From the IMG/VR virus record IMGVR_UViG_3300037521_000114, positions 37,195-101,194 of that record: DNA of 64,000 nucleotides. One strand, written 5' to 3'. The notes under the pieces are model-generated. The model was not told the DNA's origin, ran no database searches, and saw nothing but the letters and a program-made list of their open reading frames with translations. Positions 27,082 through 41,468 of this stretch are shown one piece after another. The stretch comes from a virus. The stretch's first letter is position 1; each line of letters starts with the position of its first letter. The position numbers and the translations under genes are program-made.

Positions 27082-28566
27082 TTAGAGGATGATAGGCTTA
27101 TAAGTTGCAGTACGTGTGGGATCGTAAACGATAGCTCCACCAGTGTACGCCCTGTGCTCGGTCCAAGCATCCTTAGGATTACTCATAATCCGGTTGGTCT
27201 GACCGATAGTGAAAGGATCTCTCAGTCCAGGCTCATAACCACGGATGTCTCCAAACTTGGCAAGAGCAACTTTCTGAATGTTAGGCTTTCCATCGGAAGT
27301 TCCCATGTTCAGGATTTCGTAAACACGACTCTCGGCAAGTCCTTGTCCACCGGGGAAATAAATCTTGTTACGAGCGAAGTCATCTTTCAGAGCATCGTGA
27401 ACAATGTTCACCTTGATCCCGTTGGGACCGATATACTCTAAGAACTGACCACGGAATCCCATTGGAGCCATTGCTCCGGTAACTCCTTTTCCACCGGAAT
27501 AAATCCTGTAGTTGTCCCTTGCAGGAGTGTACAGTGAGGTGTAATTTTCGAGAGCCTCATGGAATTGATACATTCCCCATTCTCCTGTCAAGACAGTCAC
27601 TTCACGTTGTCCCATCACAATCTTACCAACGGTAAGGTCAAGGAGCATTTCAGTGAATTTCTTGATGTCAAAGGAGTTATAGGTATTGTAGTTGGCAGCT
27701 TCCATTTGCTGCTTGATACCTGCACCCATTTGCAGAATACGACCCGATTTACCACGTTGAACGTACTTGCCGTCCTTGGTTTTGTTGGTCGTAGAATACA
27801 TGATCATGTGATTGATCTCATCCTGATACTGCATTTCCAGCTCGTATGAACGGTAGTCCATCCAAGTAGTCATCATCTTCTTCGATACTGGATCGACCCA
27901 AGAGAATTTTACTGGACGCTCGATCATGTTGCCGGGAATGGTATCCTGCATACGGATCATGGTAAAGGCGTTCATCATTTTGTAAGGGAACGTGTAATGT
28001 ACACCTCCACCTTTCACGGACAATTCTTGCTCCACAGGAGAGAAGTCCTTTGAGAAACGTTTTCCCGGTACGAGTTCATCGTAAGGAACAAAGAGATCAG
28101 GGTCTCCTGTGTTCAGCTTACATCTGTATCTCCAAAGTCCACCGACATTTACAGGGTCCGCAAGAACCAGAATCGGATATACTTCAAGACGCTCACCGAC
28201 AATCTGGTTCACATCAGTAAAGTATGCTTCAAAGAAAAACAGGTAAAACTCTCCGTAATTCAGACCTGCTTGTTGTGTAGCAGTCAAAGCAGTACCAGCC
28301 TCATCCAAAGAAGCCTTTGCAATAGGAATGTTTTTCTTCCCATTAGTGGTTATGTCCCAAGTAAAATCATCATCACTCGGAAGAGTGAGAGTAGGGAACT
28401 GATTAAGATAAGCGTTTACAGTAGCACCAAGATTCGCTTGATGAATCATGGTAGCAACTTTAGACGCTTGTTGAGGCTCAATACCGAACCTGTAACCCAA
28501 GTGTGACTTGGTTACGAGACCAGTGATGTCCTCGGATTCATAAAGTTGAAATGGTGAAATTCTCAT
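27082..28566 (-). CDS. Major capsid protein (Crassvirales type)
   Basis: 494 aa; GAGIKQQME, VLTGEWGMYQFH, Y.GPNGIKV..H, DPTR motifs; strong codon bias; portal-scaffold-MCP order. Confidence 0.9.
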   Translation of the reverse strand: MRISPFQLYESEDITGLVTKSHLGYRFGIEPQQASKVATMIHQANLGATVNAYLNQFPTLTLPSDDDFTWDITTNGKKNIPIAKASLDEAGTALTATQQAGLNYGEFYLFFFEAYFTDVNQIVGERLEVYPILVLADPVNVGGLWRYRCKLNTGDPDLFVPYDELVPGKRFSKDFSPVEQELSVKGGGVHYTFPYKMMNAFTMIRMQDTIPGNMIERPVKFSWVDPVSKKMMTTWMDYRSYELEMQYQDEINHMIMYSTTNKTKDGKYVQRGKSGRILQMGAGIKQQMEAANYNTYNSFDIKKFTEMLLDLTVGKIVMGQREVTVLTGEWGMYQFHEALENYTSLYTPARDNYRIYSGGKGVTGAMAPMGFRGQFLEYIGPNGIKVNIVHDALKDDFARNKIYFPGGQGLAESRVYEILNMGTSDGKPNIQKVALAKFGDIRGYEPGLRDPFTIGQTNRIMSNPKDAWTEHRAYTGGAIVYDPTRTATYKPIIL

Positions 28567-32386: not shown

Positions 32387-34615
32387 TTATGAAATTTTTA
32401 GCTTATCAGTCTTAATAAAATCCATTATTGTTTTAGAGTCATATTTACTTGGACCAGTAATATGACGGTTAAAAAATGGATCACCAGTTATCTGTTCGAC
32501 TTTCTTATCTCTCACGTAACGCTTGAACTGTAAGCGATCCTCACGATATATCATAAGCAATATTAGAGATGATATATCATCGAAGTTATCCTGTGGATTC
32601 CATCCAATAATTTCTTTTAAAAGAGGTATCGAACGGATTTTGTCCAGATTCGTTACCTCTGATCCTTCCTCTTCTCCGTAAGCAGTAGCACTCATCCATT
32701 CTACTGCACGTTGCAGTCCGTATAAGATAACAGGAGTGGAGCCGTAAGTTCCTTTACTATTATTCCCAAACGTATTAGCCTTGCTAATGCCTTTATCTTT
32801 AAGGATTTCCGGTTCATCAATAAGTAGATGAAGCTGTGCTCTGTTGTACAGATACCCGTAAATACCTTTCTTATTTCTTTCGTAATTGGCTGTCGCATTG
32901 TAATATTTCAGAATCCTGCGACAAGTTTCAAAGAATTGATCTGCGGTTGCAGGTCTGCCTTTGTAATGACAGACAATTCTATCGGTAAGTAAATCCATTA
33001 CAATGATGGAACCCACCGAGTTAGTGGTGGATTCATCATCATCATAAGGGTCAATAGCAGCTATATAACGACCAAATTGAATTTCACCTGCTTCGTTAGT
33101 TATAGGCTGCTCATATATTTCAATAACTCCCGGTTTCTTGTTATCCTTGATAGGATATTCACGCAAGGGAATACCAGTAGTATTATATTCAAATTTTATA
33201 CGTTGGCTAAGAGGATCAACAATAAGGTCAGCCAACCAAATACTATCAACAAATTTGCTCTGGTTTGTGAGAATGTGTGATAGCCGAGCTGATGCCCTGA
33301 CCGTATCGAACATAGTCCCCTGTACCCTGAGGAACGCTTCTGAAGGGGTCTTTGGCTGCTGTGTAATGAATTTATTGTAAGCGGCACGAGAACCTCTTCT
33401 ACGTTTTTCTCGCTTCTCATCAAGCGAAAGCTCTGCAATTTGTCTGTGTGAGTTACCTTCCTTATCCACATAAGGAAGGACTTCCTGTTTTTCCTTGCCA
33501 TTGATGTAGTGTTTTATTGTCCTACTACCGGGATAGTACCACATGTCATCTATAAACCATCCGCAATCTCCGGTTGCGTTTTCATCGTAAATATTTTCGT
33601 AAGCCTTTAATCCGTAGGAACTTGGATCATAAAACATCTCTGCAAAATCCTTCGTACCTCTTTCCATATCACCACCTGTTCCCCATATCAAAGGGATTCC
33701 AGTCATAATCTCTCCATCTCGAAACGTTGGTTCAGAGATGGTATAAGCAGTCAGGAGGTGTTCAAATTTACCAGCTTCTTCAAATCCCATAACGTCGATG
33801 GATTCTCCAATGGATTTGAATGGGTTATCCTTAAACGATACCGCTTGAACTTCAGACATATATCCATCTTCCACGTCGATTCCTGTCGCAGGATCACGCA
33901 TGATAAAAGAGGCTCGGAAGTGATCTCTCTTGGATAGTTTTCCTTGTTTCTTCCCCCAATCAGTAATCCTGTTAAGATGGTTGATCGAAAAATGGATACC
34001 ATCAAGCGTGACTTTATAATGCCCTTTCTCGTAGGCTGCGAGAATATTGGTTGATGCTGGAACGAAATTGTAATTGTACGCATATACTCCTGATGAAACT
34101 TGATAAGTAAATCCTTTACGTCGAGACTTCGCAATAATCATTCCCTGTTTGATATTCTGTTTATAGGGTCCTTCTGCTGCACATTGCTCGAACTCGTTGA
34201 ACCAGTAGAAGTTATGATCTAAAAATCGTGGAAGGGTGATGATCTTTCGGTTCTCTCCGACTTTTTCCGCACCTGTATTAGGGTCAATCGGTCTTGCTTT
34301 GATGAGACAAAAGTTGAGGTAAAAGTAGTGTCTTCCTGTAACACGTACACCTCCCACGCTATACCCATTGAGAACTCTATATTCTTGTTCATCCCAATAA
34401 TCGTTGTAGTCTTTTGATCCGTATGGAGCATCAGTGTAGTAGCCATGTCTAAGGAAATGTCTCCCTTCTTCCTGAAACACAGCACTATTGATGAACTTCA
34501 GGTAGTCCTGATTAGAGTTTCGAATCGGATTCTGAAACTCTTCTCCCCACGGTTTAGCTACAATTATACTCATATCATTATCCTCGTCTTTCAGGTGGTA
34601 ACTCTCGCTGTCCAA
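32387..34615 (-). CDS. terL: Terminase large subunit
   Basis: Walker A-like KSRRKGFTY, FEEAGKF (Walker B), GTGG, IDPYDDD nuclease motif, C-terminal NFDD. Confidence 0.95.
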   Translation of the reverse strand: MDSESYHLKDEDNDMSIIVAKPWGEEFQNPIRNSNQDYLKFINSAVFQEEGRHFLRHGYYTDAPYGSKDYNDYWDEQEYRVLNGYSVGGVRVTGRHYFYLNFCLIKARPIDPNTGAEKVGENRKIITLPRFLDHNFYWFNEFEQCAAEGPYKQNIKQGMIIAKSRRKGFTYQVSSGVYAYNYNFVPASTNILAAYEKGHYKVTLDGIHFSINHLNRITDWGKKQGKLSKRDHFRASFIMRDPATGIDVEDGYMSEVQAVSFKDNPFKSIGESIDVMGFEEAGKFEHLLTAYTISEPTFRDGEIMTGIPLIWGTGGDMERGTKDFAEMFYDPSSYGLKAYENIYDENATGDCGWFIDDMWYYPGSRTIKHYINGKEKQEVLPYVDKEGNSHRQIAELSLDEKREKRRRGSRAAYNKFITQQPKTPSEAFLRVQGTMFDTVRASARLSHILTNQSKFVDSIWLADLIVDPLSQRIKFEYNTTGIPLREYPIKDNKKPGVIEIYEQPITNEAGEIQFGRYIAAIDPYDDDESTTNSVGSIIVMDLLTDRIVCHYKGRPATADQFFETCRRILKYYNATANYERNKKGIYGYLYNRAQLHLLIDEPEILKDKGISKANTFGNNSKGTYGSTPVILYGLQRAVEWMSATAYGEEEGSEVTNLDKIRSIPLLKEIIGWNPQDNFDDISSLILLMIYREDRLQFKRYVRDKKVEQITGDPFFNRHITGPSKYDSKTIMDFIKTDKLKIS

Positions 34616-39624: not shown

Positions 39625-39802
39625 AAGGGTAAGTTACGCCTTTTTTTAAAATAAATTTTTCTTTCAGCACGACAGCTCCGACTCTTTTCTCTGAGGAGAA
39701 TAATTTTTTTATTTCAACTCGCAAGTGCTGACTATCTTAGCAAATACCCACACTAAGTTTTGGAGTTGGCTCACGCCCCCTCCAAATATAATACTGCGTA
39801 TT

Positions 39803-40090
39803 ATGAAGATGAAAGTCATCGAAATTGGCAGCACTGAATCCGAAGCCGGAAACATTGCTGTCAAAATACGTGCTGATATTATCACTACGACTGTCGTCGG
39901 TGATAATAAGCAGCAGGTCACTTACTATCTTAGCACACAGGCTAAGACAGTAAGCGTCAAGGTTGACGATTTCGTTGAAATCGACCTTGATCTCTACACC
40001 ATCGTGATTCGTAACTACGAATACACTGATGATGCAGGAGACCTGCAAGTTGCTCCTCTTAAATGGCTCGTTCCGAAGCCAGTTAAGTAG
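39803..40090 (+). CDS. Hypothetical small beta protein, first plus-strand gene
   Basis: Likely start MKMKVIEIG at 39803; strongly biased codons. Confidence 0.6.
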   Translation: MKMKVIEIGSTESEAGNIAVKIRADIITTTVVGDNKQQVTYYLSTQAKTVSVKVDDFVEIDLDLYTIVIRNYEYTDDAGDLQVAPLKWLVPKPVK

Positions 40091-40278
40091 TCGCATCCAG
40101 CGCGTGGTCTGCATTGCAAGGCAATGACAGTCCCGGCAGTTGCAACTCACTGTCGTGAGTAATCAAGAGTTGCATTCTCGTGTATTTGCATAGTCTTTCC
40201 CATCCTATTTGACCACAGTGATGGTAACTATGTAAATGCGCTCATTATAATTAACATAGCGTTTATGTTGATTACCCT

Positions 40279-40351
40279 CTCGTTTGAGCGAGTATAAACC
40301 AGTGTGATTAAGCTCAAAGCGTCAATGTATTTATCATACATTGGGTTCACA
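40279..40351 (+). ncRNA. Pistol self-cleaving ribozyme (copy 1)
   Basis: P1 CUCG/CGAG with loop UUUGAG pseudoknotted to CUCAAA; UAUAAA linker; P2 UGUGA/UCACA; UUAAG; GCG; P3 UCAAUGUAU/AUACAUUGG; G-U cleavage site at 40345/40346. Confidence 0.9.
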
Positions 40352-40625
40352 AATAGTACATTCAGCCTAATCAATGCTCATAGTAGCCTCTTGTAAGGTT
40401 GGATGTGCTTATTACACGCCAATGTGTTGAAGGACGTTACACATTGGGCATTTACCTAACTCTTAGTGGATTGTACATTAAGCTAAGAGGACAGCCAGAG
40501 GGTTGGAAGTGCACATTCAATGTCCCAGAACCTGAGCAACGCTGATAAAAGGCTCATTTACTCCTGTACCTTACAATTACTACCAGACGCAGGTTGCAAG
40601 TTATCTGGCAGGAGTATTTTTATTA

Positions 40626-40693
40626 CTCGTTTGAGCGAGAATACAGTCCTTAGGCTCAAAGCGTTATCAATTCACATAGAATTGATAGGTGGA
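40626..40693 (+). ncRNA. Pistol self-cleaving ribozyme (copy 2)
   Basis: CUCGUUUGAGCGAG...UCC UUAGG CUCAAA GCG; P3 UUAUCAAUUC/GAAUUGAUAG; G-U at 40689/40690; short P2 UCC/GGA. Confidence 0.8.
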
Positions 40694-40712
40694 ACCAATA
40701 CAATCTGTTATT

Positions 40713-40961
40713 ATGAGTAGATTTATATTCTTCGTCCTTGTGGCGATAGCAATGGTAGCTTGCGAGCCACCAAAGAGTCAGCAAAGAACCAGAGCTGTTG
40801 TTCTTGACTCAGTTGACAAACAGCTTAGTACTGGTCATCATCAGTACAAACTCTCATACATTAGCTACGGTGTAGTTGATTATGAGTTTAGTTATTTCCA
40901 ATATGAGATTGGTGATACAATCTTAGTTCTTGATAAGTTTAGAGGAAGGGATATCCGATGA
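40713..40961 (+). CDS. Small putative lipoprotein
   Basis: Start MSRFIFFVLVAIAMVAC: hydrophobic signal plus lipobox-like VAC. Confidence 0.55.
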   Translation: MSRFIFFVLVAIAMVACEPPKSQQRTRAVVLDSVDKQLSTGHHQYKLSYISYGVVDYEFSYFQYEIGDTILVLDKFRGRDIR

Positions 40962-41250: not shown

Positions 41251-41468
41251 TCTACGGAGAATACAATGAACAGCGTCAATCACCATTCACATATAAGAAC
41301 TATGTGGATCGTGGTTGGGCGAACGGTGGTGTTGAGTACTGCAAGTGCAGTCGGGAACACGATGCCAAGGAAGAGCATGATAATAGCTCTTATCGTGGTA
41401 GAGGAACAGATATTATCACGATTTGCCATACTTGCAAGTCATTCATCCATACTGATATGGGTGACTAA
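41247..41468 (+). CDS. Small Cys-containing protein
   Basis: CKC and CHTC motifs; ATGA coupling. Confidence 0.5.
   Translation: MIYGEYNEQRQSPFTYKNYVDRGWANGGVEYCKCSREHDAKEEHDNSSYRGRGTDIITICHTCKSFIHTDMGD

Follow-up and report, generated by a model that had tools for sequence, protein, structure and literature searches.

A pair of pistol ribozymes in an intercistronic gap of a crAss-like phage from marine sediment

The locus and its genes

The DNA that we analysed (the window) is a stretch of 64,000 nucleotides from the 101-kb genome of a crAss-like phage, in which a 494-aa open reading frame (ORF; 27082-28566) matches the Crassvirus major capsid family (2e-119) and is about 35% identical to the capsids of named Crassvirales. 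The stretch occurs in 14 runs, all of them DNA, and most of these are marine or other sediment metagenomes. Genes to the left of about position 39625, the block that bears the capsid gene, run leftward, and genes to the right of it run rightward. No tRNA was found in the window; three tRNA genes lie to its left (L179:9280-10882; G000:C1).

The rightward block begins with a small gene encoding 95 aa (gene 1; Table 1), for which a phmmer search of 1.84 billion representatives returned 16 homologues of similar length (best E values 6.2e-40 and 9.7e-32). A GTG-initiated ORF of 137 aa overlaps this gene on the opposite strand and looks, from its sequence, like an antisense shadow of gene 1; annotating it would misplace the strand switch. 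The second gene (gene 2) encodes a lipoprotein-like protein with a signal peptide ending in ...AMVAC, the lipobox cysteine of which is in alignment with its homologues, and the closest of these homologues (P0001-P0004) are 76-95% identical to it. The gap between the two genes is 622 nt long and contains two pistol ribozymes on the strand of the genes. The first-pass annotation had placed the pair at the head of the early, rightward region, a position that is in fact taken by gene 1; since gene 1 is a real plus-strand gene, the pistols are intercistronic. The AUG of gene 2 lies 23 nt past the predicted cut in the second pistol and 19 nt past the 3' end of that pistol.

The spacer that separates gene 1 from the first pistol is strongly structured (minimum free energy [MFE] of -61.5 kcal/mol, z -4.88), with none of 200 shuffles being as stable, and in the 15-bp hairpin near its end one pair has changed in a fully compensatory way (40187 U>C, 40234 A>G). 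Neither a sigma-70-like site on the plus strand upstream of the pistols nor a strict Bacteroidota TAnnTTTG motif on the plus strand between 39500 and 41000 was found; as no promoter was found, the transcription unit is assumed from gene orientation. Ten neighbouring ORFs fell into no PHROGs family, blastn of the region gave no match to deposited phages, and a sequence search with a 343-aa neighbour protein yielded no closer relative. A search with the lipoprotein alignment found nothing in viral_contigs and one contig, free of pistols, in metagenome_contigs.

Table 1. Features at and around the pistol pair (coordinates of the window)
Feature	Position	Strand	Details
137-aa GTG ORF	39737-40150	-	overlaps gene 1 on the opposite strand
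Gene 1, first of the rightward block, 95 aa	39803-40090	+	homologues found by phmmer
Structured spacer	40091-40277	+	ends in 15-bp and 11-bp hairpins
Pistol copy 1	40278-40350	+	RF02679, 53.7 bits, E 5.6e-07; predicted cleavage between G40345 and U40346
Predicted released RNA	40346-40689	+	5 nt of pistol 1, the 274-nt non-coding cargo and nearly all of pistol 2
Cargo, non-coding, 274 nt	40351-40624	+	gap between the pistol copies
Hairpin H1, 14-bp stem	40355-40409	+	-21.5 kcal/mol, z -4.44, stability not reached by any of 200 shuffles; 9 nt past the pistol 1 cut
Indel relative to close relatives (cargo and pistol 2)	approx. 40356-40700		contigs of runs X5 and X7
Hairpin H2, perfect 9-bp stem	40419-40447	+	-11.7 kcal/mol, z -2.56
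Pistol copy 2	40625-40694	+	RF02679, 55.3 bits, E 2.4e-07; predicted cleavage between G40689 and U40690
Gene 2, 82-aa lipoprotein-like protein	40713-40961	+	8 homologues, E 1e-44 to 7e-22

Two pistol motifs with every helix in place

The pistol class of self-cleaving ribozymes was reportedly described by Weinberg in 2015. When the whole 64-kb window was searched with cmscan at gathering thresholds (34.5 bits for the Rfam Pistol family, RF02679), the check that the first-pass annotation had proposed, exactly two matches were returned, both to Pistol, both on the plus strand and both covering the full model (1-68). They start 347 bases apart and score 19-21 bits above the threshold. The same two pistols were the only cmscan matches in the whole record of 101,194 bp; no other ribozyme family was found in the 101-kb genome, and there were no pistol matches in 14 control genomes.

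Direct parsing of copy 1 gave a P1 of 4 bp (CUCG/CGAG), a pseudoknot of 6 bp (UUUGAG/CUCAAA), a P2 of 4 bp (GUGA/UCAC) and a P3 of 9 bp. Copy 2 has an identical P1 and an identical pseudoknot, together with a P2 of 3 bp plus a G.A (GUCC/GGAA) and a P3 of 10 bp, and in both copies the right-hand link between P2 and P3 is precisely two nucleotides long, GU. The two same-strand elements thus have the full pistol architecture that had been read from them at first, with all helices, the pseudoknot and the GU junction. The parse likewise agrees that P2 and P3 differ in sequence between the copies yet pair in each; 26 core bases are identical in the two. The class reportedly has ten highly conserved nucleotides in its consensus (Harris 2015). 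Copy 1 departs from the consensus of Rfam only at two covarying positions of the pseudoknot, and copy 2 additionally lacks two conserved linker A's (AUA--CA in place of AUAAAuA), which leaves its linker two nucleotides short. The 3-bp P2 of copy 2 had been pointed to earlier as a feature that might go with a failure to cleave; as 8 of the 14 pistols that we parsed have three of the four model pairs in P2, we see no special weakness in it, and the short linker is the sole structural caveat.

Pairing was also assessed over 23 distinct phage pistols, both window copies included. Positions of P1 and the pseudoknot form standard pairs in 95.7% of cells, compared with 22-43% of cells in a control with slid partners, and five of the six pseudoknot pairs changed on both sides across the 23, which is covariation on the scale of the family. 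Like the pistol class (RF02679), the window copies have P1, P2, P3, a 2-nt GU junction and a pseudoknot of 6 bp that ties the loop of P1 to the junction of P2 and P3, and like it they are associated with phage DNA. They are distinct in being carried by a marine-sediment crAss-like phage and, in the case of copy 2, in having a linker two nucleotides short. We conclude that both elements are genuine, functional-looking pistols, whose self-cleavage is predicted.

The cut sites and the RNA between them (344 nt) had been located correctly to within one base. Pistol self-cleavage, which depends on Mg2+, yields products with a 5'-OH and a 2',3'-cyclic phosphate (Harris 2015; PMC4604425), and if both pistols cleave, the released RNA would carry these ends, as the first-pass annotation had expected.

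The segment between the pistols, its relatives and other pistol arrays

The segment between the two pistols (the cargo) contains no ORF with a sensible start. The sole ORF at the usual offset (+24) has 18 aa, and its AUG (40374) is buried in hairpin H1; a 48-aa TTG ORF has no homologue, and a 66-aa ORF of the cargo region runs through pistol 2. No Rfam match was found in the cargo at E values up to 10, and no terminator was called in it. It starts with hairpin H1, which H2 follows (Table 1), and over its full length it folds no more stably than shuffles do (z -1.3). No cargo-like DNA and no complementary target were found elsewhere in the genome or in the other loci compared, none of the collections searched yielded a homologous cargo, and a 19-mer of the cargo had two unrelated chance matches only in IMG/VR. 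A core-like 13-mer (40477-40489), which lies 170 and 172 nt from the two pistol cores, was considered as a decayed third pistol; as neither alignment nor the covariance model supports it, we take it as chance.

Close relatives of the locus were found in two runs from different sediment studies (X5 and X7), each with one contig that aligns to 40058-40355 at about 93% identity. The aligned part comprises the end of gene 1, the spacer and the entire pistol 1. After pistol 1, these contigs continue with a 16-nt leader and then ATG AGA AAG ACT ATT TTC (MRKTIF), which is the start of the lipoprotein homologues by alignment comparison. In these relatives, pistol 1 stands directly before the lipoprotein gene, so that the cargo and pistol 2 together constitute an indel of ~345 nt. 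Both indel junctions show short microhomology of the A(A/C)AAUA type; the ~345-nt difference may be an insertion or a deletion. The pistol 1 orthologue differs from the window copy at four positions, all of them in the linker and none in the helices or the core. The spacer is about 93% identical in these relatives, in which the body of gene 1 (39834-40057) is replaced by 227 unlike letters between flanks that are alike. This change looks like a cassette-like swap inside a small gene. A contig of run X5 also joins sequence resembling 41278-41334 directly to sequence resembling 40366-40399 (the top of H1), which places a piece of the cargo at another operon position in a relative.

With a 742-aa neighbour protein (32387-34615) as query, we obtained 39 related IMG/VR records. 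Pistols are present in one of them, G006 (IMGVR_UViG_3300023198_001126; 80% identical over the 742-aa protein), and none were found in the other 38. Among relatives free of pistols are two complete ones (77 and 83% identical) and a third record rated 99% complete, and no pistol was found in five named Crassvirales genomes; pistols are sporadic among marine-sediment crAss-like phages. G006 has two same-strand pistols 724 nt apart, which are located further into the operon, where the lipoprotein homologue and a CxxC mini-protein come before them. Between the two pistols are a 156-aa gene and its heavily folded 178-nt tail (fold z -7.5 for this gap upstream of the second pistol, pistol B), and each pistol ends 17-19 nt before the start of an ORF. 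A tblastn comparison of the cassette proteins of G006 and of locus L057 with the cargo gave no match.

A cloverleaf-shaped element was observed in G006 between the 156-aa gene and pistol B (L055:2085-2165). It has a 13-bp closing stem round three hairpins, one of which is T-loop-like (GAGG-UUGGAAU-CCUC), and a long hairpin follows directly after it; ARAGORN and Rfam called no tRNA in this element.

A loose pistol-core pattern picked out at least 118 IMG/VR stretches. Fifty records were searched whole, of which 48 have a pistol at E values up to 0.001 (46 above the family cut-off), and nine of these 48 have same-strand arrays of two to five pistols, spaced 402-2992 nt. The gaps between pistols were examined in eight of the nine array records and in G006 (9 arrays, 14 gaps; window excluded), and all 14 contain ORFs; the gap in the window is the only one without a gene. 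In six short gaps (331-464 nt), ORFs of 87-142 aa start 17-42 nt past a pistol; in five of these gaps the ORF reaches to about 10 nt or less from the following pistol, and in the sixth it stops about 130 nt short. For 30 of 72 distinct pistols, the 3' end is followed at 13-45 nt by the ATG of an ORF of 50 aa or more; among random positions from those loci the count is 193 of 1440 (odds ratio 4.6, p 1e-8).

Two further arrangements were noted. In four IMG/VR contigs (L004, L005, L010 and L012), the pistol is followed by conserved sequence with two clear hairpins (TAGGGT...ACCCTA and ATGCCATA...TATGGCAT) and no ORF, an element that may be a ribozyme-headed non-coding RNA. Records G065 (L171) and G087 (L173, L174) have five same-strand pistols each, at intervals of 417-963 nt; in G065 an identical leader, AACCAAGGGAGAGAACATG, comes after every pistol, and the units of both records are very regular combinations of ribozyme and RBS.

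Probable cutting at gene boundaries and the competing explanations

Our preferred explanation, which we consider probable, is that the pistols cut the rightward message at gene boundaries and that the 344-nt RNA is a consequence of the indel. Our observations cover the two motifs and how they pair, the order of the genes, the indel and the recurrence of pistols before ORFs; cleavage in vivo, its effects on stability and translation and the direction of the indel are inferred. Once transcribed as part of a rightward polycistronic transcript, each pistol would fold and cut at its own G/U junction. Gene 2 would be left with a short, unstructured, A/U-rich leader that begins with a 5'-OH 23 nt before the AUG, and the RNA upstream would have stable hairpins followed, at its 3' end, by a compactly folded ribozyme that bears a 2',3'-cyclic phosphate. 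The spacer would become the 3' UTR of gene 1 after cleavage, and it may form a protective 3' end of the gene 1 message. The stability and translation of the neighbouring genes would thereby be uncoupled, given the assumption that a 5'-OH affects RNA stability and translation in Bacteroidota hosts. In the same scheme, the ~345-nt indel would separate an older pistol 1 from the lipoprotein gene, and pistol 2 would restore a ribozyme-defined leader. We count the strong structure upstream of pistols (z -4.9 in the window and z -7.5 in G006) in favour of cutting at gene boundaries. Against it we count the 3-bp P2 and short linker of copy 2, as well as H1 at the start of the cargo (z -4.4), which would suit a stable RNA; moreover, this model alone leaves the retention of pistol 1 and the nature of the cargo unexplained. 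Most likely, the cargo is either a non-coding by-product that the phage can dispense with or what remains of a lost cassette, and neither a conserved RNA nor a programmed circle.

Clustered same-strand hammerhead ribozymes of prophages have been proposed to process long phage transcripts into gene-length mRNAs (Perreault 2011; PMC3088659), and the 5' end of a halovirus transcript adjoins a hammerhead cut 13 nt before a start codon (cited in PMC3088659). A 2019 review still regarded the bacterial role of such ribozymes as unproven (PMC6765202). The window resembles the prophage hammerheads in having more than one same-strand ribozyme in the gaps of co-oriented small phage genes (genes 1 and 2 are both on the plus strand) and a ribozyme that precedes a start codon by a few nucleotides. 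It differs in that the ribozymes are pistols and enclose no more than 274 nt of non-coding sequence: one or more genes between ribozymes, as in the hammerhead proposal, are found in the 14 other gaps and not in the cargo. The arrangement is the known ribozyme-punctuated phage operon, described since 2011, and the unusual part is a non-coding cargo with a strong 5' hairpin. A similar principle has been engineered: RiboJ, an insulator composed of a hammerhead and a hairpin, is said to have been used in E. coli by Lou and colleagues in 2012. Such an insulator strips variable RNA from the 5' side of a gene and leaves the gene with a uniform leader. The likeness to RiboJ lies in a self-cleaving ribozyme just 5' of a gene, and here the ribozymes are natural pistols in a phage of, presumably, a Bacteroidota host.

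Cutting at gene boundaries has to be weighed against the view that the released RNA is itself the product. The pair might release a discrete, stable, linear non-coding RNA of 344 nt with an accessory function (e.g., as a regulator, a decoy or in anti-defence), borne on a cassette of cargo plus pistol. The cargo has no credible ORF, the strong hairpin H1 (z -4.4) would stand 9 nt from the new 5' end and be followed by the perfect 9-bp H2, and the 3' end would be a folded ribozyme; the pistols of L004, L005, L010 and L012, too, precede structured non-coding sequence and not an ORF. We nevertheless regard such an RNA as possible but doubtful, because the closest relatives retain pistol 1 and the flanks at about 93% identity and lack the cargo, which folds as a whole no better than shuffles (z -1.3), matches no Rfam family and is without a homologue in any collection searched; neither a second copy nor a complementary target turned up elsewhere in the genome or in the other loci compared. 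A bolder version, in which the cargo and pistol 2 form a mobile or exchangeable cassette giving a functional, hairpin-capped 344-nt non-coding RNA that is maybe circularised by host RtcB, strikes us as unlikely; if true, crAss-like phages would have their first described case of a gene bounded by ribozymes that encodes an RNA and not a protein. A dedicated RNA maturation cassette, the first-pass interpretation, finds no support in view of the relatives that have pistol 1 straight before the lipoprotein gene without cargo or pistol 2, the coding content of all 14 other inter-pistol gaps, the enrichment of pistols before ORFs (odds ratio 4.6) and the position of the pair behind gene 1. That interpretation went as far as a circle, in which a host RtcB-type ligase would join the ends of the excised 344-nt RNA in a form resistant to re-cleavage, as the 3' P2 strand of copy 1 could not pair with the 5' P2 strand of copy 2. 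The chemistry of the ends suits RtcB (PMC4604425), and the ligated junction would indeed spoil P2 of pistol 2, with only two of four pairs (GUCC against UCAC). Precedent exists in tandem ribozymes 186-399 nt apart, which make circles in retrozymes and have been proposed to do so in totiviruses (PMC13725137, PMC7229834). With retrozymes and related tandem-ribozyme circRNA units (PMC7229834, PMC7761336, PMC13725137), the window has in common two ribozymes a few hundred nucleotides apart and product ends suited to an RtcB-type or tRNA ligase. However, retrozyme units are repeated, conserved and rod-folded with their ends joined (de la Pena and co-workers), whereas the unit in the window is a single copy in the operon of a DNA phage, is not conserved in close relatives and lacks end-to-end pairing. 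Both the MFE and the centroid structure of 40346-40689 leave the two ends unpaired with each other, the predicted MFE fold having its 5' 9 nt unpaired and its 3' end within P3 of pistol 2 itself. No RtcB was found in the phage genome, and ordinary genes lie between the tandem pistols of other phages. For tandem hammerheads of phages, circular or spliced products were considered and sought, and none were detected (Perreault 2011; PMC3088659). With the unremarkable fold of the cargo (z -1.3) added to these points, we think circularisation very improbable.

It is also conceivable that one or both pistols are inactive or decaying relics of recombination, their conserved 5' halves serving mainly as DNA crossover points for gene cassettes. 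The region is mosaic, with the body of gene 1 replaced in relatives, the 40366-40399 fragment found elsewhere and the pistols of G006 at other gene boundaries; the 26 core bases identical in the two copies and the shortened linker and 3-bp P2 of copy 2 would also fit. Yet every helix, the pseudoknot and the GU junction are kept in both copies, which exceed the family threshold by 19-21 bits, and the four differences in the pistol 1 orthologue are all in the linker, with no paired or core position affected. The P3 stems, moreover, are unrelated in sequence and perfectly paired, which argues for selection on the RNA. We accordingly give the relic explanation little credence.

To our knowledge, no study has demonstrated what biological role pistol ribozymes play. 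The locus provides no grounds for claiming circular phage RNAs or an RNA of a novel kind. Together with its relatives, it provides a natural experiment in which an arrangement of pistol, leader and gene can be set beside one of pistol, non-coding insert, pistol, leader and gene. The tendency of the 72 pistols to stand before ORFs supports the idea that pistols give genes a defined 5'-OH leader and insulate neighbouring cistrons, and the locus extends pistols to the crAss-like phages of marine sediments.
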